64,000 bases of DNA from NCBI GenBank assembly GCA_052327205.1, contig CM126223.1:49104001-49168000 (forward strand), written 5' to 3'. Under the pieces are notes generated by a model that was not told the origin of the DNA, did no database searches, and saw only the letters and a program-made list of their open reading frames with translations. Below, one piece after another: positions 12,121-46,486 of the stretch. Made by a program: the position numbers and the translations under genes. Source of the DNA: Somniosus microcephalus (lineage: Eukaryota). Each line of letters begins with the position of its first letter. Within the stretch, counting starts at the first letter, position 1.

Positions 12121-13047
12121 ATTTTTTTTAAAAGCCAATGTCTAATGGAGAGAGCTGGAGGGGAGAAGTTTTCAGGGTGGAGGGGTAGAAGGAGGGGTTA
12201 CGTGCACAAAAGACGCAGCTGTGTTTTCCAGATTATTTTTGTCAAACTACTTTTAGCTTCACACCACTTTGTGTTTGATCGCATATCACTGTGTTGTGTG
12301 TTATATACTCAAATTCTTATTTCTTGCTGGTAATTGGCTTTCGCCTCAAAGTGCAACCGATCCTCCAGTGTTAACAGGACACCCAGAAATTGAAAGCCAG
12401 CATTATCAAGTGTCCCTATCATTGAACTAGGGCGGTTGCTACAAGCACAGACACAGAGTTTCTTGTCTTCAGTCAGGGAGTTTCTAGGAAAGCAGACCTG
12501 CCCTCCAACTCTTGGATATTATTTGGTGTTTGCCCAGCACAAAATAAAAAGAAAACACCATCCAAAAAACTTTCAGGTTGCCCCTCATTTCAAAGCAGAT
12601 AACCTTTTGGGAACTGGAAGCCCTTTGCAGCTGTCAAATGTTTCTCACTTTATGCATAGTGATGTAAAACTGATTTTATAGGCTTTCTACTTCGGTATTC
12701 GGAAGTGGCCGTACGAAAGTGTATAAATCACGCACCCCACACCCCAGGACACTTAATTCTTGATATTACTGGAATATCGACTCGCTCGTGGAATCTCCAG
12801 CGGACTTAACTTCAGGTATGGCGAACAAAGAATAAATCGTGCTTCCTGTGCGGGGGAAAGGAGAAGTATTTGGCTGCCAAAGTGCTATTGCAGTTCTCAA
12901 AGGGTTAAATCACTTCGAGCACCCATAGAAAAATATGAATTGATTTACTTAATGTCTCTGGGAGTTGGCTTTCTCGTGCTTTGTTCTGATAATTGCTCTG
13001 ACTGAATGTGCTGTCCCACCTCCTTCCCCCCTACTCCTGCTGCATAG

Positions 13048-13138
13048 ACTACCTCTGGAGATCATGACCGTCGTCTGTCAGTGTGAGGATATAGAAACCA
13101 TTGAGGGGGTCCCTGTATATGTTACAGGGGTTGCACAG
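13048..13138 (+). CDS. FLOT2: Flotillin-2 alternative exon 3A (mutually exclusive with 3B), 91 nt, phase 2 to 0
   Basis: Acceptor ctgcatAG|, donor CAG|GTaact. Translates (R)LPLEIMTVVCQCEDIETIEGVPVYVTGVAQ, a clear paralogue of exon 3B with identical length and phase. Confidence 0.9.
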
Positions 13139-14072
13139 GTAACTTGTTCGTAACCTTGCTCTATTTTCTTGTCTTGTTTTTTTTCCCCCTCTCCCTCTTT
13201 GCCCCACAGCCCCAACCCTTTCCCCTCCCCCAGCAGCAACTGAATGTTGACCTCTACTGCAGCACCTTCACCGCTTTACACCCCCAGCATCACGGCCAAG
13301 TGGCATGGCCTGTAGCACTAGGTATCGCACAGAAAGGGAGCGGATTAAACCAAACTAAGAGGGGAGGGGGAAGAAAGAGGTGGGAAGGAATAGGCGGATT
13401 CAAATTCTAGCGCAAAAATTCTGAAGACCGACCAAAATGGGTGTAAGTTGAGTGTGTTCATTCCCCTGCCGCCCCCACGTCTGAAGGACAGGAATGCCTG
13501 GTGCCCTTCTGAACAAACTCTTCTTCTGGGAATTGATTACAGGTTGAACTTCTCAAACGGACAGTCCCAGACTTCACCAGAATTTATAAAGTCTTCCAAT
13601 TATGAAATGCATCTACTGCAATGACGACAAACAGAACTCCATTCTGACAAAAAGTTGCAATCTTCCCCACCAGATTTTGGGGATTGACTTGGTGTTATGA
13701 ATTATTGAGTGTCCTGAAGTATAAGCCACATTGTATGTTCATTAAAATGGCTCGTTTCTCTGTGAAAAGTCGTGTGTAATACTTCATTGCATAAAATGGT
13801 TGCTGCAGCAACTTCATCAGAAGGAGTTCTAACTAAATGGACTCACCTACACTGTGAAGATCTCAAGGGGTGCCTCTCGAGCCCCATGCAATAATTTTAC
13901 TTTTGATAATCAGTTATTTTATTTAGCTGGGCTTTTTTTTTTCCTGAGCATTGTATGGTACCTCTGGTTGGGGTTCAAAGGTGAGAGGTGAAAGGATTGG
14001 AAGAAAAAAGGAAGTGGGGCTTGAGGCCTGTCATGTGACCTGGAATTTGCGAGTGTTTTACGTTTTTCACAG

Positions 14073-14163
14073 GATTTCCCTTGAGATTATGACGCTTCAG
14101 CCCAAGTGTGAGGATGTAGAGACCGCAGAGGGGGTAGCACTAACTGTCACAGGGGTCGCTCAG
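14073..14163 (+). CDS. FLOT2: Flotillin-2 exon 3B (canonical exon 3), 91 nt
   Basis: tttttcacAG| ... CAG|GTaaat. Translates (R)ISLEIMTLQPKCEDVETAEGVALTVTGVAQ, near-identical to human FLOT2 ISLEIMTLQPRCEDVETAEGVALTVTGVAQ. Confidence 0.96.
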
Positions 14164-16064
14164 GTAAATAACCCCACAATCCCAAAATAAAAGCTGATTT
14201 CTAAAAATTCTTTGCAGCCTGAGTCTGTCAAAAGGCACAAAAAAAAACTGACTAATGCTTTTGCTTATCTTAACAAAACAGTAGGAGGTCACTTATTCTG
14301 TAATTCTTACATGAATGACGTTCAAGGGTGGAAAATGTGTTTTAACAGGACCTGACTGTGATAACATTCAGGCCCGTGGCCACTTATTATTTTGTTCAAG
14401 AACCCACCATGTATTGGAATGCCATGTTTCTCACACCGAGCGGCACGCAGCTATCCAAATGTTGAAGCTCGTAGTGGCATAAAGCAGACCCATGGAAAGT
14501 ACTATTATACGGCCCCTTGGGCCTCTGGCATCAAAATTGCACATTTGTGGACGAAACAGTCGCCGAGAATCTGGCATGAAACCTCGCACACGTACAGTTT
14601 TCCACCCATGAATGTTAGTGGTGAGCTGACCGTTCATTTTGGAACCATGGGATCATTTTCTGTAACGTTCAAATTAACTTTTGCAGGCTTTGGTGATTTT
14701 TTTTTGGGGGGATTTTTATTTTGGTTGACATGTTTCTATTCTGCCTCAACCGGTTAAATGGAACTGCATGACCTTAAAATGAATGGCATTCTCCCTGGTT
14801 TGAGCCCGTACAGTGTGGGAAGTCGCAAGCACCCCGAGGTGTCTCGGTGTCTCCTAGCGGGGACACCAACCTTTTACGGTACAACATGTGCCAACAGGCA
14901 CTGTGGCTACCAACTAGCTACCTGTGATTTCACTGGACCTCTTTGGCCAATACACAAGCAAAATCTGGGGAGCATTCATTCCACTGCTAATAAACTGATT
15001 CACTGATCAGCTGTTTTAAACAAAAAAAAGCATACGGGTTCCACGGCTTTTACAAATCGAGGCGTTGAGTGCAAAAGCATGGAAGTTATGCTAAACCTTT
15101 AAAAAATTGCTGGTTAGGTCTCCGCTAGAGTATTGTGTTCATTCCTGGGTACCAAGATAGCAGCAGCATGTGTGTAATGCATCTGAATGTAATGCAAATA
15201 ATTAATTTAATATTGTATCTCGTAATATAACCAATGATTATTCCCTGTACCTCTACCAGGAATGCAATGATATTTTACTATACCACCGTCCTCTATAAAT
15301 CTCCAGGTTTTGAATTGGCTCCTTCACCCCACTGTAATAACCCTTAAACTAGGATGATTGACAGCAAAAGGATCTGAAATTAGGCTTTTATTTAATGCTT
15401 CAAGCCCTAGGAATTAAATGAGATTCTCAATGCTGTGAACATATTCTGTCGGTAATGCATTGAGACCCTTTTCACAATGAATTTTAATTTCCTGCAACAG
15501 AATCACTAGATCAGGGACTGCAGAATAAAGCTGTGTGAGGCGGACTGAATAGGTAGAGCTAGATTAACTTATGCAGAGAAACAACCTATGACACAAGACA
15601 GCTGCAGAGAGAGGGAGGAAAAATGAATTACCTGAAGAATTCCGAATGGGGCAAAGAAATCTGAGGGAACAAACCCTTTGAGGTAGTGGCCAAAGAAGAA
15701 TTGGTTGGAAAGACTGCAAAAGAAAATCAAGGTTAGAGAACGATGGGAGATTAATGTTCAAATCTTCAATGTAAGTGGGTAGTTTCAGGATAGTAGGAGT
15801 GTATCTTATTTTGGACCACTGGGTGTCTGAATTGCATGGAAGCCATGAGTCTCCAAGCTTAGCTGCAGAGAAATCGCCCTAAGTAGAGTCTTTGTTTGTG
15901 GCGTGCATACACTGTCCCTTGAGGGACACACACCACGTGTTCAAGTCCAGAGAGCATAGGTGCAGTTTGGCAAGTGGCAAGGGAGCCCCCATATGTGCAC
16001 AGGGTTACGCTGGAGTTTAATTAGCTAAAGCAGTGCACCCATCAGCATTATTCTCTGATGAGCT

Positions 16065-16935
16065 GTTTAAAAAAAGCATATGGGATCCTTGGCTTCATAA
16101 ATAGAGGCATAGTGTAGAAAAATATGGAAGTTATGCTAAGCCTTTGTAAAACGCTGGTTAGGCCTCGGCTAGAGCGTCCGCTGTGGCTCAGTGGGTAGCA
16201 TTCTCGTCTCTCAGTCAGAAGGTTATGGGTTCAAGTCCCACTTCAGAGACTTGAGCTCATAATCTCGGCTGGAGTGCAGTGCTGAGGGAGGTGCCGTCTT
16301 TCGGATGAGATGTTAAACCGAGGTCTCGTCTGCCCTCGGGTAAAAGATCCCAAGGCACTATTTCTGAGAAGAGCAGGGGAGTTCTGCCCAATATCCTGGC
16401 CAACATTTATCCCTCAATCAATATCTGGTCATTATTACATCATTGGCTTTAAAGCACTTTGGACCGTCCTGAAGTCATGATAGGCTCTATATAAATGCAA
16501 GTATGTCTTTCTATCGAGAGTATTATGTCCAATTCTGGGCACCACACTTTAGGATGGATGTCACGGCCTTGGAGAGGGTGTAGAGGGGTTTTACCAGAAT
16601 TATACCAGGGATGAGGGAGTTCCGTTATGTGGAGAGACTGGAGAAGCTGCGATTGTTCTCCTTAGAGCAGAGAAGATTAAGGGGAGATTTAATAGAAGTT
16701 TTCAAAATTATGAAGTGGTTTGATAGAGTAAATAAGGAGAAATTGTTTCCACTAGCAAGTGGGCCGGTAACCATAGAACACAGATTATGAGGGGAGTTGA
16801 GAACTTTTTTTTACGCTATGCAAATTGTGATCTGGAATGCGCTGCCTGAAAGGGCTGTGGAAGCAGATTCAATAGTAACTTTCAAAAGAGAATTGGGTAT
16901 ATACCTGAAAAGAAAAAAATTGCGGTTCTATGGAG
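16065..16935 (+). mobile_element. CR1 fragment interrupted by a SINE
   Basis: CR1 RT C-terminal sequence ...ggttaggcctcggctagag stops at 16174 and resumes as agagtattatgtccaattctggg at about 16517. Confidence 0.8.
16175..16512 (+). mobile_element. tRNA-derived SacSINE1/DeuSINE-like SINE nested in CR1
   Basis: A box tggctcagtggg, B box ggttcaagtcc, central ggaggtgccgtctttcggatgaga...taaaagatccc...gaagagcaggggagtt, tail ctatataaatgcaagt. Confidence 0.8.
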
Positions 16936-17199
16936 AAGCACCCTTCCCCAAGACAACAACAACTTGCATTTATATAGCGTTTTTAATGTAGGAAAACATC
17001 CCAAGCTGCTTCACAGAGGGGGGTAATCAGCCAAAGTCAGAGAATTTGGGAGGGGCTTAATATCTCACATGAACGATGGCACGTCCAACAGTGCAGCACT
17101 CCCTCCGTACTGTACTGAAGTCTCGGCCTGGATTATGTGCTCAAGTCCTTGAGTGTGGCTTGAACCCATGAGCATCTGCCACTGAGCCAAGGCCGACGC

Positions 17200-17755
17200 C
17201 TCTCAGAATTTTGGATGAGCTGAAGTGTGTGCAGTGGGGGAGGATGTGAAACCAGCCAGGAGAGTGTTGAAATAATCGAGTCTGGAGGTGGAAACGGATC
17301 AGGATTTCAGTGGCAATTGGGCTGGGGTGGAGGCGGGTAATGTAACGGAGGGAGAAGTAGTTGGCCTTTGTGATGGAGGCTATGGGGTTAGAAGCACAGG
17401 GCCGAGTAAGCTGCCAAGGTTGCGAGCAGTGTTGTTCAACTTGAGATAGTGGCCAGGGAGGGGGATAAAATCAATATACAGGGCATGGAGCTTGTGCCAG
17501 AAGTTGAAGACAATGGCTTCAGTCTTCCCAATGTTTAACTGGAGGAAATTGCAGCTCATCCATGACTGGATATTAGACGAGCAGTCTAGCAAGATAGAGG
17601 CAATGGAGGGATCGAGAGAGATGGTGGAGAGGTATAGCTGGGTGTTATCAGTGTACTTGTAGAAGCTGACCCCATGTGGCCAAGGGCAGCATGTAGCTGA
17701 GGAAGAGGAGGGAGTCCAGGATAGATCCTCGGGGAACCCTGGAGCTTATGGTGCA
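17200..17755 (-). mobile_element. L2-clade LINE RT fragment
   Basis: Minus ORF IQSWMSCNFLQLNIGKTEAIVF...ARNLG is typical of the L2 RT C-terminal region. Confidence 0.8.
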
Positions 17756-18889
17756 GGGACGAGCTAGATTTGTTCATCCTCCTCTTGGTGTGCGGCTGAG
17801 ATAAGGTTGACTGAGTGGGAAAATTGAACCCTTGTCCCAGCACTCCTTAACAGCAGATTTTGATGCAGCTGTCATTAGTATTTTAGAAACTTGTGGCACA
17901 TAAGGTTTAGAATTTAAAGAATTTGAATCTGCAGAGTATTATCTATGGATTGCTTTCAGCTTTATTTCAGTGTTTGCCATAATTGCACTTTGTGGTTGTG
18001 AGGCAACCTCCAGTATGACCTAAATTGTTGTCTTTGAAGAGTTTGCAGTGACAGGAATTCCCATGGCTGAGTTCATTGCTCTGCTAACCGTATTTGTTTT
18101 TTCCAGTTGCATGTTCGAAGCATCGAACTGGAACAGATTGATGCTGTCCCTATTTATAATAGAATTAAATCCAAGAATAGTGATACGTAGGACTCAGATT
18201 TTTTAGACGGGATGACTATTGGTGTTTGTACAGAGGGCATCTTAAATCTGGAGGAATTGCCTCCGAATGTTAACTGTGAAGAGGCTTTGATCTTGTGTGC
18301 GGCTTGAAAACTGTACTGGCTTCAAAGTTTTGTTACAAACTTGCTCCAGCTGCAAAGCTCGAGAAGTGTGCCTGCGGCAATCTCTTTGCTTCACTTGTTC
18401 AGCCTCCCCGTGACCTACATTTTAATGGACTCATCATAGGTTTAAAAAAAACTCAAAGCTCTCCTGATAGTGGAGGGGACCACTTGCTGTGGTACTGAGC
18501 TACATGGGCCAGAAAGTACCAGGTTTGGTATCCTGTCTAGTGAGGGTGGTGGTCGAGATACCGTCTACTCTTTAATTGATTATTTCAAATGATCTGTTAA
18601 TTCCGTTTTTTTTAAACTTTAAATTGAAACGATTGCATAATTTGATTTTTCTTCCCCTTAAATAAAATGTTTTAAAAATAATAGGAGTAGACGATTGGCC
18701 CTCCAGATCTGTAGGTTAGAAAGAGGATAGAAGTTCGCACTGCTCCATTGCTTCATAGCGAGCGTGCTGGAAAAAGCACGGGTGAATGTCCAGGTGAGGA
18801 CAGCATTGGGCTCAACTGTGATGTTCTCCACAGTCACCAAGACCCACTGGCTAGGCTCGCACATCAGCACGAGTACCTGGGCAAGGCAC

Positions 18890-19268
18890 AGAGAAGGTTA
18901 AGAGATGACGTAATAGAGGTTTTCAGATGAGAGGTTTTGTTAGAGTCAATAGGGAAAAAATATTCCCTCTGGCGAGTAGGTCAATAACTAGAGGGCATAG
19001 ATTCCAAGTCATTGGAAAAAGACCTAGAGAGGGGGATGAGGAGAATATTTTTCAGACTTGTCAGGATCAGGAATGCTCGACCTGAAAAGGTGGTAGAAGC
19101 TGATTCCATCAATAATTTTAAAAGGGAGTTGGACGGGTTCCTGAGGATGAGGAACTGACCGGGTTAGGGACAAAAAACGAGGATGTAGGATTAGCACAAC
19201 GGCTCTTTCAAAGAGCCAGCACAGGCACGACGGGCCGAATGGCCGCCTCCTCTGCTGTGAATCTATGA
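18890..19268 (+). mobile_element. CR1 3' fragment
   Basis: QRRLRDDVIEVF... followed by 3' tail acgggccgaatggccgcctcctctgctgtgaatctatga. Confidence 0.75.
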
Positions 19269-19969
19269 ATAGTTGCAGCTGGACCTCAGTAAGAGCTTCA
19301 GAAGATCGGGGGGTGGGGGGAGAAATTAAACAATCACAAGATTACTGTTGAAAGTTCAAGATATTTCCCTTTATTATTTATGTCTTCAGTGATTAGTTTT
19401 TAGTTTCAGCCCTTCAAAGCTTGTGACAATTTAGAACACAAGAAAATCCATCAGTTTTTTGAGATTCTTATTGAGCACTAATTAAGGTGCTAGTTTTTCG
19501 CTCGTCTACATAATTTGCATAAGTGGTCACTAATTAGTGTAGGCGGCTATGTTTGTAAGGTGTATTTCTGCTCAGTGAAGAGTAAATTTATTTTCATTTT
19601 GAGAAGTTGTTGTCCCATTTGGGGTAAATCACCAGAATATAGTTTTCCCCCCTTCTGCACCCTTGGACTGGCCTGTGTCGCCACCTTGTTGGTGCACTTA
19701 TCGATGTGGGGGTCGGAGCTGATAGATGGCACAAAGTTTTTATAATGGTTTCAGCGCACTGTCAGCCAGTCTGCGCCATTGTTGATGTTGGGTTGTACGG
19801 TGCATCTATGTTGCCCAGTTGTTTACCTGCTGCCTTGGGGTGTCTGTAATTCATTCTCCCCCTTTTAAAGCTGGCTGCCAATCATGCTGATCTAATGGCA
19901 TGTCAGTAAAATCCCCACCTTTGTGTGTTGAGTGTGGGAGTGTTTATGACGTGCAGCTGACTGGAGGGA

Positions 19970-20285
19970 GACAACAACAACAACTTGTATTTATATAGCG
20001 CCTTTAGCGTAGTAAAACGTCCCAAGGTGCTGCACAGGAGTATTATAAGCCAAAAAATTGACACCGATCCACATAAGGATAAATTAGGGCAGGTGACCAA
20101 AAGCTTGTTCAAAGAGGTAGGTTTTAAGGAGCGTCTTAAAGAAGGAGAGAGAGGTTGCGAGGTTTAGGCAGGGAATTCCAGAGTTTAGGGCCCAGGCAAC
20201 AGAAGGCATGACCAACAAAGGTTGAGTGATTATAATCAGGGATCCTCGAGGGCAGAATTAGAGGAGCGCAGATATCTCGGGAGTT
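19970..20285 (-). mobile_element. L2-clade LINE 3' end
   Basis: Reverse complement of tail gcgctatataaatacaagttgttgttg; minus ORF AFCCLGPKLWNSLP. Confidence 0.75.
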
Positions 20286-20459
20286 GTGTGATTCCTGTGC
20301 TACTGTCCAATCCAAAAGTGCCCATTTTCTCATGGTCCACAGCAGGACTGAACAGTTTACCTTTTAAGTAAGACTAGAAAATATCCATAAACATTATAAG
20401 CCACAACTTTCAATACTGTGAAACAGACATACTGAAAGAGACGGTCCATTAGTACCGTA

Positions 20460-20860
20460 GGGTTACCTAATAGAGGTCTTTAAAATCATGAAAGGTTTTG
20501 ATAGAATAGACACAGGGAGAGTGTTTCCACTTGTGGGGGAAGAGAAAAACTAGAGGCCATCAATATAAGATAGTCACCAAAAAATCCAGTCGGGAATTCA
20601 GAAGAAACTTCTTTACCCAGAGAGTGGTGAGAATGTGGAACTCGCTACCACAGGAAGTGGTTGAGGCAAATAGTATAGATACATTTGAGGGGCGATTAGA
20701 TAAGCATATGAGGGAGAAAGGAATAGAGGATTATGCTGATAGATTTAGATGAGGAAAGACGGGAGGAGGCTCGAGGGGAGGAGGCTCGAGTGGAGCATAA
20801 ACGCCGGCATGGACTGGTTGGGCCGAATGGCCTGTTTCTGTGCCGTATATCCTGTGTAAT
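20460..20860 (+). mobile_element. CR1 3' fragment
   Basis: KTRGHQYKIVTKKSSREFRRNFFTQRVVRMWNSLPQEVVEA. Confidence 0.85.
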
Positions 20861-21323
20861 CCTTTCTATTAAAAAGGCTATGAAGCTAAGAAAGTCTGCA
20901 GCAAGGAAAGGTAATTTGCCCCATCAAGCCCAATCCATGTGTGGTTCTTTCATAGACATCCTCTCCCACCGCACACTGGACCACCTCCTATTGATCCCCG
21001 ACTTCACTGAACACCCAAGTTCTTGCCCCTGGGCAAAAGATAAATGCAGGGCACTGCTGAGGAATCCTATTAGTTTGATGTCGAGTTAATTGTTCACTCT
21101 TCCTTGCATTAGCACCTGAGTCAAGGTTCCCGTTCATTTTTTTAAAAATTAGCTCCTGGATATTATTGAAGATTCTCTCCAGCGTAATTTTCCCTTCAGT
21201 ATTTTCTTCAATTGCAGCAGGTGTCAGGGTGGCTGCTTTTAGTGAGTCCTCGCTGCAAGCACCATTTACAGGCAGCTGTTGACCATCTCTGTGAGCTGCA
21301 CAAGCACAAAATATGAAATTACT

Positions 21324-21515
21324 ACAGAAAATGCTGGAAACACTCAGCAGGCCAGGCAACATCCGTGGAGAGAGAGAGAGAGAGAGTTAACGTCAGAAGG
21401 GTCACAGACCTGACACGTTAACTCTGACTCGCTCTCCGCGGATGCTGCCTGGCCTGCTGAATGTTTCCAGCATTTTCTGTTGTTAGTTCAGATTTCCAGC
21501 ATCCGCAGTATTTGG
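21324..21515. mobile_element. Penelope-like element terminal remnant arranged as an inverted repeat
   Basis: Arm acagaaaatgctggaaacactcagcaggccaggcaacatccgtggagag...gttaacgt (21324-21393) is the reverse complement of 21415-21480; related sequence at about 6140-6245, 38017 and 45909. Confidence 0.7.
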
Positions 21516-24500
21516 CTATTGCCGAATGTGAAATTGTTGGTTGCCACAAATCGAGTCTCTTGTGATAGCGGCAGTGTTCTCGAGAAATTCAGAGACTCTT
21601 ACAGCTCGGAAGGAGGCCATTCGGCCCATCGTGCCTGTGCCGGCCCTTTGAAAGAGCTCTCCAATTAATCCCACTCTCCCTACTCTTTCCCTGGAGCCCT
21701 GCAAATTTTTCCTCCCTTCAAGTATTTATCCAATTCCCATTAAAATTTTGATCAGCCAATCCATTTTAATTGGCACCTGCCAACGAAGTGAGAGTTTTTA
21801 CATTGCTTGGTAGGTCCGCCCTATTCAATCAACTACACTACTGAAAGTAAATCCCACAGCACTGGAGATCCATCCTTTCTTGGATCACTGAATCTGCTCT
21901 CTGCTTTTGGTTTCGTCAACATGCTCACCGCATCAGCATGCTTTGTTAATGATGCAAACTGACAGCACGTATGACACAATGGGTTAGCTCAATGCTTGTT
22001 CTTGGCCCCTACCCAAGTGGGTTTTTTTTAATTAAAGATATATTTTTTTTAATTATCAGAAGAATATATTATCCAGTACCTCTACTCTCTAGTAGTCTCC
22101 TCTCCAGAGGAGGCCGATTCGCAACATGGAGAGCTGGCCTCCTCCAACAGGTTTACTGGAGAGCAGAGGCACAGGGCTGTATTTAATCATGGAGGAGTGA
22201 TGCAGAGGGAGTTGGTTTGCCGTTACTTTCCCAAGACTTGAGGCACGTCTAAAAATGCCTGAAGTTAAAGCATCGGTGCCAGTTACTGCATCACGGGGAC
22301 TGAGTGAGTTGAGATTAAAAGAGAAGCTAGTGACGGGCTTTTTCCCTAAGAATTCCTTCCTGTGCGCATCCATTTTGGGGGAGGGGGGGCTAGATAAAAT
22401 GAGGGGGAGTGACAACAGCCGGGGCTTCCGATGGAGTTGACTTGCTAAAGTGCACTCTTTCCCCGCCCCCCCCCCCCCCCCCCCCCGCCAACTGCATCCA
22501 ACTCCACTATACCTGCCCCCTCCAGTGGATGCTTACAGGGTCCCCAAAGATGCAGTTTGAATTATTATTGTAAAATGGGAAGTGCAACATGGAACTGCAA
22601 AAGACCTAGAGCAGAGAAAGAAACTCTGTGGGTAAGTCAGTTGGTATTGTTATTTCTCAGTGATTGTGCGGTGATGAGCCCTGTGGGCTGGCATCAAACA
22701 GTGAGAAAAGTCCCATAGAGCTACCTCACTGTGTACTCGTGTGAATGAATGCATGAATTTTAACCCTAAAGTTTACTCAACCGTAACTTGCCCAAATCTA
22801 CTGAATTCTTTATTAAGGCTAAAGTGATGGGATGTGCGATCCTATCTGCGTCTACTCTCAGTGATTTAACCAGTGTTTGTCAGGCCATAATGTGAAAGGT
22901 CCAGCCTATCTGCAGGAGAGGGAGTGCAAATTGGTCACAGTGAAGGCTCTGCCGTGTTCATGTACCTCCTAGTGGCTTATGATGGGATGATATTGCAGCT
23001 GACTAAGAGCTGCTCTGTTCCCTGCCTTCTGACTGGGTCGGGGGGTGGGAGGTGGGGTGGGGGGGCTCCTAATTGAGGAGGATAAAGTCTTGATGGCTCA
23101 GATTTCCTGTTTTCAAGTTAGTTGAAGCTGCCCCGATAGTTCGGCTAGTTTCGCGAGCGAGTAGCGGAGCCACACAGAATGCAAGGTCCCGATTGGATTC
23201 CTGTTGCTGTGCTGAATTAGTTGATCTCGAATGAGACAACAGTTTACAGTTGTCTTCGCCGCCACCCCTGCACTAGAAAGGGGAAAACCAGCTAGGACCC
23301 CCTGCTCCTGAGTACTAGCCAGCAGCCTCTGCTGGAAAATGTGCATGTCAGTTAAGGAGAGGACCGGGCTTGGTTGCGATGGTTGAATATCCTGGCAGTG
23401 CTCACCGTGTAGGCTCGTGCATAAAGAACGGTCACTTGGACAGTGTACTGGAGGAGAGTGCCCAGCACCCCTGGGCACCGTACCCCAGCAGGATTCCATG
23501 CCTTCAGAAGAAGGGGGGGCGAGGGAAGGGACAAAATTGGCAAAATTTCCTTTTTCAATCAAAAGTATTTGATGTGATTTAAATTGTCTAAGTCTCTGCT
23601 TCCAAATGGTAAGAGTGTCTCCTTGCACAAAGCAGTTTAGAGAATTCAGCCTACAAAATCACAGGCTGTCACAAGAAAATGAATGTGTAGGTGGAATGAG
23701 AAGGTAGAAAATAGATGAGATCTTTAAACTCCGATACCCAGGTGTCACGTAATTAAATTTCAATCGTCAACATTTTAAAATTGGGCATAATTAGCACTTT
23801 ATTATTCAGCGTAAATTGAAACCTGGACAACATCTCGGATTTAGATTTCACAGCCTTTGTTACACACTGTTGACCACTTCCAAAATCATTTTCTTCCCCC
23901 CCTCCCCCAGCCCCCCTACCCCCTCCCTCCCCGCCGGATTTACAAAAACACTTTGTAATACCTCATCTCTGCATGCACATCACGGAACAGTTTGACAGAT
24001 TCTGCTGCTGTGAAAGGGCTGGTAGAGACTGAAAGGAAAAGTGCCTGGATGCTGATCATTAAATTATAGACCACTTTGGAAACCTGTTCTGCCATATTGG
24101 AGCATTGATGCAATTGATTCTGGTTTCCAATAATACTTTGCAGCCTTGAGTGGGTATTTTAGAGCATAATTCTGGCATGAACCCTTCCTCCATATTGGGG
24201 TGTACAATGATCAATACTTTACATTGCAGCACGTGCAATGTGATCAATTTACATCTCAAAAGTGGAAGAGTTTATGGATAATTATAATTTCTTGGCAACG
24301 CAGCACTTGACTGTCCCTTGATTGCTCATAGATATCAGTCAAAATACAACCACGAACCAACTCCAAAATGGCAGATAGATCACTGAGCACATGTTGGCTG
24401 TGATAAACCCATTCCATGCTTGCTTGCCATGTTAACGCACTGAAGGTGGAGACAGGCAGCGACACAAGGTTTGAAATAACGGAGGGGAGAAAACACTGGG

Positions 24501-25819
24501 ATGAAGAGAGCACCCAAACCAAAATACAAAAATGGCAGTTTTCAAAAGTGTTGCCAGCACGAAACTTCTGTTTCCTATCTCATCAGCATCTTTCACTTCA
24601 GGCTTATTGTGATTTTTTTTCTCCCCCTTGCTGTTTGTCCTCCTGCCCCCACTTTAAAAGTTCTTGAATATAAAAGGGATGACCTCAAGAAATGGGGTGA
24701 ATGCTCATCCAAAATGGTCTCTCTTGCTCATTGAATTAATGCTCCACGATTGCACTGTTGTCATTTATTCTGTGTGCTATGAACCATGGCCTGTGACCTG
24801 TATGATATCTCCGCACTCGAGATGTGATCAGGTTCTTAAAGCCATTTTACGCGTTTGCTTTTGACTCTTCCCCGACGGCTTTGTGAATATACATGCTGTG
24901 TGGCTTCAAGTCCCGGTGTCACCGTTGGCTGATTTCAGCTGGACCAGCAATTGGGGATACCACTCTTGTCCAGAGGGGCGGGGTGGTAAATCATCCAGAG
25001 CCCGCCCCCACCCCACTTCCTGATCACTACCCGGCCGGTAACTGCTGCTGGATCATGCAGGTGTGAGGACAGGGTCGGGTTCCAATGTGATGCTGCACAT
25101 GGTCAATTAGCATCCCAAAAACCTGCTGTTTGAGCTCACATGAAGGGTAGCTACATATCCAAGGTAGTGAAGAGCTGCCAGTGGCATGAATCAGCGTGAG
25201 AAGAGTAAGGTTGAGAGGGAGGGAAGAGAACGTGCGTGTGTCCCACTGTGAGGTCTGGTAAATAACTCCCCTCGTGGTGCTGATCCGAATGTATTTTCTG
25301 TATTTCCAAGAGGTGATTCCTGTATAATCCAAATTACACATTATATAATTTGACACAAATGATCAGTAATAAAACTGCCTATGATTTCTAATATCTGCAC
25401 TTGTCCTAGATGTCTTGCATATTGAATCATTAATGCCACAATGCATCTCCAGATGAGTGCCAAGTAATTCAAAAGATTTCCTGGAAGTTAATTGTGCCTG
25501 AGAGATGGTCCAATTTTGTCATTTCCCCTCCCTACCCCCCTCCCCTTCTAATTTTTAATTTCCTCCTGGCGTTGTGCAATGCTCCTTCTATCAGGACAAG
25601 CAAGAGGCCACATTCCAGGCCAGAACTGACTAGGTGCAAATGGTAGAATTACTTTCATTGTCTTGTATTCTATTTACATTCAAAACACTTCAACTTAAAA
25701 ACAAATTTGAAGAAAGCAAACTAAACAGAGTGGTCAAGCCGCTTGCTCCTTCTTCCTCTCCCCACGTAAGCCTCTTATCTGCAGCTCTCGTTTTATCTGT
25801 AGCCAAGTGATTATAGATC

Positions 25820-26315
25820 AACAACAATAACTTGTATTTATATAGCACTTTTAACGTAGCAAAGCGTCCCAAGGCGCTTCACAGGAGTGTTATCAATCAA
25901 AATTTGACACCAAGACACACAAGGAGATATTGGGACAGGGTCAAGGAGGTAGCTTTTAAGGAATGACTTAAAGGAGGAGAGGTTTAGGGAGGGAATTCCA
26001 GAGCTTAGGGCCCAGGCAACTGAAGACACGGCCACCAATGGTGGAGCAATTAAAATCGGGGATGCGCAAGAGGCCAGAATTGGAGGACCACAGAGATCTC
26101 GGAAGGTTGTAGGGCTGGAGGAGGTTACAGAGATGGGGAGGGGCGAGACCATGGAGCGATTTAAGAGTTTTTAAATCGAGGCATTACCAGACCGGGAACC
26201 AATGTAGGTCAGCGAGCACAGGGGTGATGGGTGAACGGGACTTGGCGTGAGTTAGGAAACGGGCAGCAGAGATTTGGGTGAGCTGAAGTTTACGGAGGGT
26301 TGGAGGCCGGCCAGG
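25820..26315 (-). mobile_element. L2-clade LINE 3' fragment
   Basis: Same tail and body as 19970-20285 (aacaacaataacttgtatttatatagc...gggaattccagagcttagggcccaggc). Confidence 0.75.
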
Positions 26316-27916
26316 AACCATCCAATCACACTTCCCCAGTTACACGTTGGAAATAAGTTGAGAAGCTGTCCTATGACTGTTCAGGATTGGTTCTTTTTTT
26401 CTCTAGAGTGTTGTCTTTGAAAGTAGTTTTCTCCACAGTTACTGCTGACCCGGCTCTGGAACCTGTCACTGACGTGTGCTAAAGTGGCCTGGTGATGAGA
26501 GCTTCTCCGATACACTCACGATGGGCCAAACGGCCTCCTTCTGTGCTGTATCATTCTATGATTCTCCACCTCCTCCCCCTTTTCTTTCCCCGTGGGCTCT
26601 GGTCTGCATTGGGCACAATGACGAGGCTGAAATAGGGAACTCGGATTTATGTAATCAGCCCATTTCAAACGCTCTGTGGTTTGGGACTGAATTATCAAAT
26701 ATAAGAACACTAGTGGAAATTGAATTAGCCCCTTATGAATAGGCCACACACTTCCCTAAATATCACATCGCAAAATAGCAAAGTGTAAGTGATTCAAAAC
26801 CAACTTCAGGTTAATTGCAACATTTTTTAAATCAAAAATTGAAATAGGAAACTATTGAGTGATGTAAGCCAATTCGAATGTTTTTTTTAGGCAGAGGTGT
26901 TTACAAGTAACTCTTAAACTTAAATTACTAATTACTGATTAAATTAGAGTATTCCAGGATAAGGGGCTTTAGATGAAAGTATTTAAATACTTTCATTTAA
27001 AAATGACACGCAGCGTTTACCAGTCAGATGCATTGAATATGAGGCAGGTAAGATCGCTCCCATCTCTGGTCTCTGCCGGAGCTGCACCAAGAGTGAAGGC
27101 ATCAAGCGGAGGCTGCAGTCTTTGCCTGCAGGGCAGAGGAGAGAACCTCGCTTGATGGTTCTCCCTGGTATACAGGGGCGTTGATTGTGGTCTGGGAAAC
27201 AGAGCATCCTGGCAGCAGCAGCAGCAGTGTCGCGAATGGGCGAATAAAAGATAAATTGTAGGCTATATGTTTGTCATTCCAAAATAATAATCACCTGAAA
27301 ACGTTTGCCTGAGGATTACATACCGTCTGATCGGATTGGAGCTGCCATTCCTGAGTCGTGACCCGGACCACTGGCAAAGCTTTTATATTGCGGGATCCGC
27401 AGAAACTGTAGCAAACCCCCACCCCCTCAGGAGGGTCAACCTACTCGCCGCTCGGCTGAACTCCCAGCTCCTGTCTGACACTGCTGCTCCAGGGATTGAA
27501 ATTCCACTGCACACTGAGCGACACTTCCTGATCTCGTAATAGTTTTGCAAGGACAGGGATTTTCTCCCAAAGCCTGCAACACGATCCCATCCTCCAGAAC
27601 ATTCGCGTCAGGTTGGAGCTGATTTGTGGTGGTCAGAGGCAAGTCCTGAAGTGAAGTGGGGGTGGGTGGGGATGGAATAGAGTGAGCCCAAGATCAGCCA
27701 TGATCTTATTGAATGGCAGAGCAGGCTCGAGGGGCCAAGTGGCCTGTTCCTGCTCCTATTTCTTATGACGGTCTACTGGGGGAGAAGGGGGAAAGAAAGA
27801 GAGAAATGCTGCTGTGAACTAGAATGGACGAGGATGAGAAGGGGTGAAGGATGTCGATGTGAACTGGGGATAAGAATGCCGGCATAGACTGGGGTACAGG
27901 TGGGAAGAAGAAAGAG

Positions 27917-28362
27917 AAATCCCAGCATGAACTGGGGGGCTGGTGGGGAGGAGAGAGTGAGGAGGAATTTTTTCACCCAGAGAGTGGTGAACCTGTGGAA
28001 TTCTCTACCACAAAAGGCAGTTGAGGCCAATTCATTAAATATATTCAAGAAGGAGTTAGATATATTTCTTAAGGGTAAAGGGAATCAAGGGATATGGGGA
28101 GAAAGCAGGGACAGGGTACTGAATTTGGATGATCAGCCATGATCTCATTAAATGGGTGGAGCATGCTCGAGGGGCCGAATGGCCTACTCCTACTATGTTT
28201 CTATGAAATCCCAGCATAAACTGGGGGGCTGGTGGGGAGGAGAAAGTAAAATCCCAGCATGAACTGGGGGGCTGGTGGGGTGGAGTAAGTAAAATCCCAG
28301 CATGAACTGGGGGGCTGGTGGGGCAGAGTAAGTAAAATCCCAGCAGAGAGAGAAATCCCAGT
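27917..28362 (+). repeat. ~42-bp minisatellite (aaatcccagcatgaactggggggctggtgggg...) split by a CR1 3' fragment at about 27959-28205
   Basis: One unit at 27917, three more full units from about 28206 and partial units after; the intervening segment encodes RRNFFTQRVVNLWNSLPQKAVEA. Confidence 0.85.
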
Positions 28363-29800
28363 ATCCAGTCAGTTATGCAGAAGGCTGCTCGGCCCATTAT
28401 TAGCAACATGCTAACGGTCACCAGTTTCAAGCCTCCTGCAATCCCTGTAAAGTGAGCCTTTGCCTTCCTGTGAGAGAAGCAGATTCCACCAGCAAACGTA
28501 GTTAGACACATGAGAGGCTTGAGGTGGAGAGGAAGTTGCCACTAAATTTGGCATGAATGGTGCTGCTGTTGGCAAGAGCACCAGTCATGTTTGGTTTACT
28601 GCCAGGGTGACTGCTTGCTGCTTATACATGGGTTGTACCTCTGGTGCAGGTGACCATCCATTTTGGTGTAAATGCCCTTTGTCTTTCGACTGCACTTTGC
28701 ACCCTCTGGTTGTAGAACCTGACTGAAAGTAGGAGCTTCACACTGTCACCTTCCAGACTGGAGAAGGTTCTTAACTAATGACAAGTTGACAAGTTTGTCA
28801 CTGAACACTTGGGTTCACAGCCCCCTGAAATTGTGGGGGAAATCTCAGTTGGGGGTACCTGTAATTCCTTTCGACTGTTGTCTGCGAGTACCTTGTTGCT
28901 GTTTAATCGCGGTGTATTGAGAAGTTAGACCCGTTACCTTTCATTAGATATTTGCCCTTTGAAATTAAGTGACTTGCGGCTCTGTTACCACAGTGGTGCT
29001 CGTCCAATGGGGCACTTTACACGTGCTCCCAGGCTCACAACTCTACAATTATCGGCCAATTCCTTGGACGTGCCCCGCTCTTCCACATGCGACTCTTCCC
29101 CCTTCCCCTCTTCCACCCCCCCTCCCCCCCCCACACTGCCTGTTGTCAACTCCACGTTTTGGTTTTTTCAATTATTTTGCCAGTTAGACCGTAACTGTCA
29201 AAGCTGCATGCCACGCTAAGTCCTTTTTGACTTGCTTTGATGTCGTAAAAGTATTTTGGTGGTGTGATTCATGTAAATGCATGCAGTGGCGAGGCCTCCG
29301 TTTGAGCCAGTCAGATTCAAGGTTTCAAATAAGCTGCAATCAATAATTTTTTTAAAGAAGTGTTTTGCCTCTGTACCCTGCAACAGCTTAACTTAGCAAT
29401 GTGGAAATTCAGTGAGGAATATTTTGATTTTTCTATCAATGGTCAAAATGAATAATCTCTCTCTTTAAGTTACTTTGATGCCTCTCAATGTCCTTGTTGC
29501 CAGGTTGGAGTGTTACAGGGTGCAATACTGTTTTGTTGCTTTATGCATTGGCGTGATTTTGGTTTTTTAATGGAGTGTGCTTTGCTTTTTTTTTGCTGTG
29601 CTAACCTGCTTTCATGGTATAGCCCTGCAATTTTTAACATCTGCTTCTATTAATCTTAAAAAAAAAAGTATTACAGAAGTGTAGTCTTATTTTAATTCCA
29701 GTAAGTTTTAATACCTGCTTTTTAATAGCCTTAAAGTATTAAGAATGTACATAACTGTTTGTCATGTGCTGTCGGCTTATATTGTGCTCCCTATGTGCAG

Positions 29801-29924
29801 GTGAAAGTCATGACCGAGCTGGAGCTGCTCGCCGTGGCGTGTGAGCAGTTTCTGGGGAAAAGTGTCCAGGAGACCAAAAATGTGGTGCTGCAAACCCTAG
29901 AAGGACATCTCCGATCTATCTTGG
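29801..29924 (+). CDS. FLOT2: Flotillin-2 exon 4 (SPFH domain), 124 nt
   Basis: tgtgcAG| ... TTGG|GTaatt. VKVMTELELLAVACEQFLGKSVQETKNVVLQTLEGHLRSIL(G). Confidence 0.97.
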
Positions 29925-30263
29925 GTAATTGGTGGCCTTAAGTTTGTTTAAATTCTCATCCCAAAGCCTGCTCCTCAACCCCTACTCTCTTTTTAAAAAA
30001 GTTATTCGCACAATTCTAATGCTCAGTGGGTAGCGCAGTCTCCGTCGCTTATAGTGCACATGTTGGTGTTTACGCGATTAGCCCGCTATAAGCGTTGGCC
30101 GGTGCGTCTTCATTTACAGGGACTAGGACCTTCCTCGCTAATGAGGACCGAGAGCAGTGAACGGGGCCGCACTCACACAGCCAGGCGCCACTCCACGCCC
30201 GCTAGTTTCAGATTCTTCCCTTCGCAGACGGTGCGATTCTCTCCACAGTGAGCATGTGTTGTC

Positions 30264-30498
30264 CGACGTTCCCGCTAAGCTGCATGGCCGCCCAGCGGTC
30301 TGGAGGTCCCGCGCAGCCGGCTCACCGGCTTTTAAATGGGGAAAACCGCACCTGTTATTGGGGGAACGGAAGGATATGCAGGAGGCTCATTCAGCTGGGG
30401 CCAGCCAATCATTCCGTGGGAACTCAGTGATGTGAAGAACATCAAAGTTGGGAGTCAAAGGGGCCGCGCACCCGAAAAAGAAATTAGAGGGAACATTG
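30264..30498. mobile_element. Non-autonomous hAT-type MITE with internal captured segment
   Basis: TIRs cgacgttcccgctaa / ttagagggaacattg (12/15 match as inverted repeats); flanking 8-mers gtgttgtc / gcgctgcc differ only by three C/T transitions (decayed 8-bp TSD). Confidence 0.6.
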
Positions 30499-32316: not shown

Positions 32317-32435
32317 GAACACTGACGGTTGAAGCCATCTATCAGGACCGAGATCAGTTTGCTCAGCTGGTACGTGAAGTGGCCGCTCCTGATGTAGGCC
32401 GCATGGGAATCGAGATCCTCAGCTTCACCATCAAG
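32317..32435 (+). CDS. FLOT2: Flotillin-2 exon 5, 119 nt
   Basis: ctctcccacAG| ... AAG|GTatga. (G)TLTVEAIYQDRDQFAQLVREVAAPDVGRMGIEILSFTIK. Confidence 0.97.
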
Positions 32436-38422: not shown

Positions 38423-38536
38423 GATGTTTTCGACAAAGTGGAGTACCTGAGCTCGTTGGGGAAGTCACAGACAGCGGTGGTGCAGAGAGACGCAGAAATT
38501 GGAGTCGCAGAAGCAGAGAGAGATGCCGGAATACGG
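38423..38536 (+). CDS. FLOT2: Flotillin-2 exon 6, 114 nt
   Basis: gttacAG| ... CGG|GTaacc. [38 protein letters not shown]. Confidence 0.97.
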
Positions 38537-40088: not shown

Positions 40089-40208
40089 GAAGCTGAATGC
40101 AAGAAGGAAACCATGGATGTTAAGTACAGTGCTGACACCAAGATGGCTGACTCCAAGCGAGCGTTCGAAATGCAGAAGGCAGCCTTTAATCAGGAGATAA
40201 ATACAAAG
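40089..40208 (+). CDS. FLOT2: Flotillin-2 exon 7, 120 nt
   Basis: ccatAG| ... AAG|GTaggt. EAECKKETMDVKYSADTKMADSKRAFEMQKAAFNQEINTK. Confidence 0.97.
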
Positions 40209-42221: not shown

Positions 42222-42436
42222 AAAGCAGAGGCTCAGCTGGCTTATGAGCTGCAGGGAGCCAAGGAACAGCAGAAAATCCGACAGGAAGAAATAGAGATCG
42301 AGGTGGTGCAGCGCAAGAAGCAGATCGACATCGAGGAGAAAGAAATCATTCGTATGGACAAGGAGCTGATCGGGACGGTGAAGAGACCGGCAGAAGCGGA
42401 GGCCTTCAGAATCCAGCAGATTGCAGAAGGGCAAAA
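42222..42436 (+). CDS. FLOT2: Flotillin-2 exon 8 (coiled-coil flotillin domain), 215 nt
   Basis: gtgcttAG| ... CAAAA|GTacgt. KAEAQLAYELQGAKEQQKIRQEEIEIEVVQRKKQIDIEEKEIIRMDKELIGTVKRPAEAEAFRIQQIAEGQ(K). Confidence 0.97.
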
Positions 42437-44183: not shown

Positions 44184-44367
44184 AGTGAAACAAGTGCTGA
44201 CCGCCCAGGCTCAAGCTGAAAAGATCCGCAAGATCGGCGAGGCAGAAGCTTCTTCTATATCGGCTATCGGAAAAGCCGATGCTGAGAAAATGAGATTGAA
44301 GGCAGCAGCTTACCGGCAGTATGGAAACGCAGCCAAGGTGTCGCTGGTGCTGGAAGCTCTTCCGAAG
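44184..44367 (+). CDS. FLOT2: Flotillin-2 exon 9, 184 nt
   Basis: ttttttgcAG| ... AAG|GTaacc. VKQVLTAQAQAEKIRKIGEAEASSISAIGKADAEKMRLKAAAYRQYGNAAKVSLVLEALPK. Confidence 0.97.
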
Positions 44368-45289: not shown

Positions 45290-45439
45290 ATTGCTGCCAA
45301 AGTAGCAGCTCCTCTTGCCAAGACAGATGAAATAGTGATTCTCGGAGGAGATAGTAACCGCGTTACGTCGGAGGTCACTCGCTTATTGGCAGAGGTCCCT
45401 GCCTCTGTCCACGCTATCACGGGAATCGATCTCTCAAAG
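45290..45439 (+). CDS. FLOT2: Flotillin-2 exon 10, 150 nt
   Basis: tctctccAG| ... AAG|GTcagt. IAAKVAAPLAKTDEIVILGGDSNRVTSEVTRLLAEVPASVHAITGIDLSK. Confidence 0.97.
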
Positions 45440-46447: not shown

Positions 46448-46486
46448 GTTCCTTTGTTCCAAAATTTAACCAACAGTCAGACCTGA
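46448..46486 (+). CDS. FLOT2: Flotillin-2 terminal coding exon 11 (39 nt to TGA)
   Basis: Long pyrimidine tract then ttctAG|GTT CCT TTG TTC CAA AAT TTA ACC AAC AGT CAG ACC TGA = VPLFQNLTNSQT*, the same length as the human C-terminus IPLIKKATGVQV*. Exons 3-11 sum to 1156 nt, giving 428 aa if exons 1-2 contribute 131 coding nt as in human. Confidence 0.88.
   Translation, partial: VPLFQNLTNSQT

Follow-up and report, generated by a model that had tools for sequence, protein, structure and literature searches.

The tandem-duplicated exon 3 of FLOT2 in Somniosus microcephalus is the shark copy of a published either-or human exon pair

The human flotillin-2 gene (FLOT2) carries two versions of its third exon, catalogued as event 77 by Martinez Gomez 2021 (PMC8373072), in which transcript ENST00000394908 uses the form termed 3B here and ENST00000585169 the form termed 3A. 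According to that survey, which gives both peptides, the event has proteomic support, its last common ancestor is dated to Chordata, it also features in the surveys of Hatje et al. and of Kondrashov and Koonin, and 84.3% of human tandem exon substitutions are shared with sharks. The FLOT2 event is marked as nervous-tissue specific in table S2 of PMC9741552 (2022). In the portion of PMC7561204 available, the 3A transcript has five peptide detections, three of them nervous, and the 3B transcript has 30, spread over tissues; the human event is classed there as group-specific in RNA-seq, but, when judged by protein, not as tissue-specific. A shift between the two transcripts in sepsis appears in the accessible part of PMC9205547.

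The pair in S. microcephalus resembles human event 77 in gene, exon length (91 nt), residues encoded (45–74), and exon order; it differs in its introns, which are far longer, some 17 kb both before and after the pair. It is also typical of tandem duplicated exon substitutions as the consulted parts of PMC8373072 and PMC9741552 describe them, being homologous, consecutive, same-phase, probably used singly, and ancient. Since the event is catalogued in human, the shark feature is real and already known, and both shark isoforms are present in the NCBI annotation of many sharks.

The window, that is, the whole stretch of 64,000 nt analysed, contains most of the gene. A tblastn search with shark flotillin-2 (P0002) covers exons 2–11 at 73%–100%, with further matches to PDB entries, and identifies the host gene as FLOT2. 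Exon 2, which is 82 nt long, falls some 3.9 kb ahead of the window (L004:6024-6105); no exon 1 was found within 80 kb upstream. The coding exons in the window are as follows:

13048..13138, + strand: FLOT2 exon 3A, minor form, Cys54 type, residues 45–74; 3A–exon 4 contig in run X7
14073..14163, + strand: FLOT2 exon 3B, major form, Pro54 type, residues 45–74; reads in run X24, contigs in runs X7 and X12
29801..29924, + strand: FLOT2 exon 4, 124 nt, the acceptor shared by 3A and 3B
32317..32435, + strand: FLOT2 exon 5, from shark flotillin-2 mapping and the frame test
38423..38536, + strand: FLOT2 exon 6, from shark flotillin-2 mapping
40089..40208, + strand: FLOT2 exon 7, from shark flotillin-2 mapping
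42222..42436, + strand: FLOT2 exon 8, from shark flotillin-2 mapping
44184..44367, + strand: FLOT2 exon 9, from shark flotillin-2 mapping
45290..45439, + strand: FLOT2 exon 10, from shark flotillin-2 mapping
46448..46486, + strand: FLOT2 exon 11, coding part to the stop, from shark flotillin-2 mapping

Several repeats in intron 3 are transcribed, occur in high copy number, and show very high RNA depth on each strand (16100–17300, 19700–22050, 25600–26800, and 27400–28550).

Exons 3A and 3B are consecutive homologous exons, both placed between exons 2 and 4 of one gene. Each is 91 nt long, preceded by AG and followed by GT, and runs from phase 2 to phase 0, with a 934-nt intron between them; the coordinates and translations are exactly those of an earlier note on this DNA. 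The two share 60 of 91 nucleotides and 19 of 30 amino acids, a likeness that is not due to chance because, when the whole window is scanned in six frames, nothing after 3A comes closer to the 3B peptide than 9/30. When the 3B peptide was searched against the shark's own genome, the three scored candidates were 3B, 3A, and one FLOT1-type exon on another contig. This last exon, homologous to exon 3, is present in one copy (G000:C35:136862444-136862533, L003) with long simple tandem repeats on either side.

The claim that only one-or-the-other products stay in frame held in the frame test: exons 2-3A-4-5 and 2-3B-4-5 are both open, inclusion of both exons (2-3A-3B-4-5) meets a stop at codon 62 of 169, and omission of both (2-4-5) meets one at codon 29 of 108. 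Nonsense-mediated decay would then remove the both and neither products.

Use of the two exons was assessed in public sequencing runs, of which 6 of the 24 listed were aligned to the locus and 4 gave junction results in a narrow alignment; the run search returned no matching run recorded as RNA. A wider alignment of four runs over 12600–30300 was swamped by the intronic repeats and is uninformative on junctions. In run X24 (same species, raw RNA), four reads join exon 2 to 3B and 13 join 3B to exon 4, their loose ends agreeing with the exon sequences; coverage of 3A is no more than about 3-fold, from reads that extend into the intron, with no 3A junction. Run X23 covers neither exon. In two runs from other organisms, whose RNA status is a guess, contigs join 3B to exon 4 at a depth of 470.9 (X12) and exons 2, 3B, and 4 at a depth of 200.2 (X7). 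X7 also yields one contig, at a depth of 7.2, that keeps intron 2 and leads from there across 3A to exon 4; its exon 4 portion amounts to 25 loose letters (27 with the shared GT), below the aligner's 31-letter standard. The 3B–4 contigs stop after the same 25 exon 4 letters, presumably because two paths meet there in the assembly graph. No exon 2–3A junction and no 3A–3B joint, as co-inclusion would produce, was listed in any of the four runs, in which 3A coverage is very low. Thus, of the four junctions that the earlier note had singled out for counting, 2–3B and 3B–4 are present, 3A–4 is represented by the single low-depth contig from another organism, and 2–3A was not listed. On these junction counts, 3B is the main form in the runs examined, and use of 3A is weakly shown.

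The sole 3A-spliced contig, running as it does from intron 2 into 3A and exon 4, could be read to mean that 3A is used mainly from a start inside intron 2, the product being a short FLOT2 with Met50 as its first residue and without the SPFH1 membrane anchors; a 379-aa Callorhinchus isoform (P0011) does begin at Met50 of 3A. A contig, however, is no proof of a start, and the one in X7 is explained by a precursor spliced in part. Residues 45–49, ahead of Met50, are moreover invariant in all 14 full-length chondrichthyan 3A proteins, and full-length 3A isoforms are widely annotated, the human one with peptide support. An internal start as the main source of 3A is accordingly very unlikely. Among the annotated isoforms, Stegostoma X5 (400 aa, P0010) joins 3A to another upstream exon, and both this form and the 379-aa Callorhinchus isoform, designated X3, would drop the N-terminal membrane anchors.

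The want of a 2–3A junction in the four runs, together with the longer branch of shark 3A in the tree described below, would also suit an exon that is in decay or has no productive use and is present in precursor RNA alone. The peptide is nevertheless frozen across sharks, rays, and chimaera, and the exon retains its splice sites, its flanks are conserved, and its silent divergence is low, so that such decay is highly improbable. In the preferred reading, 3B joins exons 2 and 4 as the main form in the runs examined, and 3A is likely a minor alternative.

Both isoforms are annotated, in NCBI or UniRef, in sharks, rays, chimaera, bichir, sturgeon, teleosts, lungfish, amphibians, reptiles, birds, and mammals. 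Shark 3B is identical to that of coelacanth (30/30) and nearly so to that of human (29/30), and shark 3A shares 21/30 residues with mammalian 3A. Within the cartilaginous fishes, the 3A peptide of S. microcephalus recurs unchanged in 14 of the 15 proteins listed (15 of 18 cluster members), and the fifteenth, from a chimaera, is identical over the 25 residues present. This is a further difference from human event 77: chondrichthyan 3A departs from bony-vertebrate 3A at 8–11 of 30 residues but stays the same all the way from chimaera to rays. Such a pattern suggests, on sequence comparison, a burst of change on the chondrichthyan stem followed by stasis. Between run X12 and the window, exon 4 differs at 7 of 25 letters, 3B at 1, and 3A at 3 or fewer (Fisher p 7e-5 and 8e-4).

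Relationships were examined in a tree of 41 hand-picked 30-residue peptides (30 columns; one or few per lineage among those fetched). A branch with support of 100/96 separates the 14 3A rows from the rest (100/98 for the 3A group in a repeat tree), and the 12 3B rows have support of 81/85; shark 3A is a long branch (0.48). Forcing shark 3A with shark 3B gives a p-AU of 0.055 in the 41-peptide set, with identical rows left free, and costs 14.1 lnL with a p-AU of 0.045 in a 23-row repeat without identical rows, a borderline outcome because the alignment is short and the shark branch is long. Across 79 peptides, the derived residues of 3A are a hydrophobic residue at 53, Ile at 59 (78/79), and a non-Thr residue at 68, Cys54 itself being class-defining; the derived states at 52–54, 59, and 68 stand against both 3B and invertebrates. 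Teleosts, sturgeon, and lungfish have Asp at residue 68 of 3A, which means that not all lineages have a hydrophobic patch at this position.

That borderline rejection leaves some room for a separate duplication in sharks, convergent on bony-vertebrate 3A, as does the similarity of shark 3A to bony 3A (19–22/30), which hardly exceeds that to 3B (19/30). Set against this are the same order (3A upstream of 3B, in shark as in human), length, and phase, the shared derived states, and the strong support for the 3A group in both trees, and convergence is thus barely credible. Rather, the shark exons are almost certainly the orthologues of the vertebrate FLOT2 pair. The earlier note had given a mammalian alternative exon peptide, which is exact (it is residues 45–74 of PDB 9BQ2 chain A and of human ENST00000585169), and its proposals of orthology to that exon and of tandem duplication are upheld by the tree, identity, order, and phase. 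Its further suggestion that the switch predates the chondrichthyan–osteichthyan split is supported both by the grouping of shark 3A with bony-vertebrate 3A and away from shark 3B, in a tree that holds no lamprey, and by the annotation of both isoforms from chimaera to mammals.

As shark 3A groups with bony-vertebrate 3A, the pair originated, on these sequences, in jawed vertebrates at minimum. No lamprey or hagfish FLOT2 was retrieved in protein searches. Tunicate, amphioxus, hemichordate, and echinoderm proteins each show one ancestral-type peptide; two proteins were retrieved for Styela and five for Branchiostoma, with a single ancestral-type peptide per genus (proteins, not genomes), and the data neither confirm nor refute the Chordata date. 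The exon 3 region of invertebrate FLOT2 and FLOT1 forms the same hairpin as the vertebrate pair, and invertebrate FLOT2 has Pro54 and Thr68 as in 3B and Pro66 as in 3A. Unlike the shark pair, only one invertebrate form was retrieved; FLOT1 in the shark's own genome likewise has one matching exon.

A conserved exon within conserved flanking introns is the usual pattern of regulated alternative exons. Intron blocks flanking both 3A and 3B align across runs, whereas the stretches between the blocks do not:

12869..13047, + strand: conserved intron upstream of 3A, with an 81-nt AG-free zone, a pyrimidine tract, and branch-point-like sites at -47 and -59
13229..13319, + strand: conserved intronic block downstream of 3A, with GCATG at 13303; X12 piece in which 5 of 91 letters differ
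14164..14370, + strand: conserved intron downstream of 3B, with ACTAAT at 14251; X12 contig 14144–14370

The block upstream of 3A is aligned in both X12 and X7, and the flanks of 3A are pyrimidine-rich (67% and 78%). ACTAAT at 14251, 88 nt downstream of 3B, is presumably a QKI-type motif; a motif scan found no full TGCATG within 12500–14500.

Three structural routes to mutual exclusion were considered and rejected. Steric exclusion by a short intron does not fit an intron of 934 nt, in which the AG-free zone of 3B spans 17 nt with no distant branch-point zone, and U2/U12 incompatibility does not fit sites that are all GT-AG with ordinary donors. For docking-selector pairing of the Dscam type, the best candidate duplex (13293–13317 with 14018–14042, -25.5 kcal/mol) looked good against eight shuffles, but the best of 21 block pairs was matched by 13 of 150 dinucleotide shuffles.

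The likeliest account is that the choice is protein-regulated, such that 3A would be kept silent outside neurons and decay would clear the frameshifted products; exclusivity would then arise from regulator proteins acting on the conserved flanking introns. In mouse Qk-knockout cortex, inclusion of a 91-nt Flot2 exon rises from 0.56 to 0.77 (FDR 0.058; PMC6429586 table S2); this is an exon 3, since the coordinates agree with neighbouring exons 82 and 124 nt long, although the table does not state whether it is 3A or 3B. An unnamed flot2a exon responds to rbfox1 knockdown in the accessible part of PMC4541041, and 12 of the 20 supplementary files of PMC4465641 returned no hits.

At the protein level, a model of the 3A isoform (mean pLDDT 78.3, 85–90 over the exon) shows exon 3 as a hairpin with strands at 50–60 and 66–77, which is the first beta-hairpin of SPFH2, with Cys54 in mid-strand. 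Both forms occur in the PDB, 3B in 1WIN and 9L3G and 3A in 9BQ2. Chain A of 9BQ2, an AlphaFold-based model from cryo-EM of native HEK293 flotillin cages, has the minor 3A sequence at residues 45–74, and the main text of the accompanying paper contains neither 'isoform' nor 'splic'; the isoform modelled may not be the one in the sample.

The earlier note had supposed that the extra cysteine of 3A may change palmitoylation or membrane binding. S-palmitoylation of Cys54, giving the neural isoform stronger or redirected membrane binding, would accord with the replacement of the ancestral Pro by Cys in 3A from sharks to mammals and with the attachment of flotillins by acylation (PMC13000311 and PMC11260169, in the parts available). 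According to these same sources, however, membrane contact and the reported acylated residues C4, C19, and C20 sit in SPFH1, the membrane-embedded acylated cysteines being these three (PMC13000311). Position 54 is hydrophobic, of the Val/Ile/Leu type, in 84% of 99 non-vertebrate homologues and in register with the buried-type positions 52 and 56, a burial that is inferred from column statistics, and the model places it in mid-strand. No paper joining flotillin-2, palmitoylation, and C54 was found in the open literature; Flot2 is absent from two supplementary files of PMC5498535 on brain acylation sites, which has no bearing either way. The idea is thus lowered, and palmitoylation of Cys54 is unlikely.

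Because the column statistics and the model place residue 54 in an SPFH2 core strand, Cys54 instead looks like a core substitution for Pro. Positions 53 and 68 are mostly polar in the same 99 homologues (17% and 23% hydrophobic, respectively), and the changes of 3A there likely face outwards. A hairpin or hinge tuned by the 3A swap is favoured over a new lipid anchor, and on sequence and model is given about an even chance. FLOT2 V65 and L67, both exon 3 residues, lie in a hydrophobic core around the Fyn site Y163 (PMC13000311 and PMC11260169, as far as available). The swapped hairpin would run from the membrane-side domain to the Tyr163 hinge, with P54C in its core, outward positions 53 and 68 turned hydrophobic, and A66P beside hinge residues V65 and L67; together, these changes would tune how the cage assembles or tilts, or how it binds partners. 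In the open literature, no study that compares the 3A and 3B isoforms in function was found, subscription papers lying outside the search.

Variation of another kind is seen in three hemichordates, each with two FLOT2 isoforms that differ only in residues 4–15 (P0328/P0418, P0417/P0419, and P0354/P0420) and that, from their sequences, are apparently the products of duplicated first exons. In one of the two forms, Cys4, a reported palmitoylation site, is replaced by Ile.

Taken together, the shark exons very probably represent the published tandem-duplicated, either-or FLOT2 exon 3, in which 3A is likely a minor, nerve-enriched, hairpin-retuning form. The neural bias of 3A in sharks, carried over by analogy from human peptide data, is itself reasonably probable. 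A bolder and quite tentative proposal is that vertebrate neurons possess a second flotillin cage, in which 3A might reshape the SPFH2 hairpin next to the hinge at Tyr163, which Fyn phosphorylates, and thereby alter opening or cargo, with a duplication that was vertebrate and not chordate-wide and a cartilaginous-fish 3A rewritten in one stem burst and then frozen.

As a discovery, the shark locus carries little weight, the exon pair, its pre-shark age, and its nervous-tissue bias all being in print. Its meaning for the family lies in an exon, retained through all of jawed-vertebrate history, that would exchange a portion of the hinge in the flotillin cage; should 3A alter the dynamics of the cage, work on neuronal flotillin that uses a 3B clone would miss the native form.
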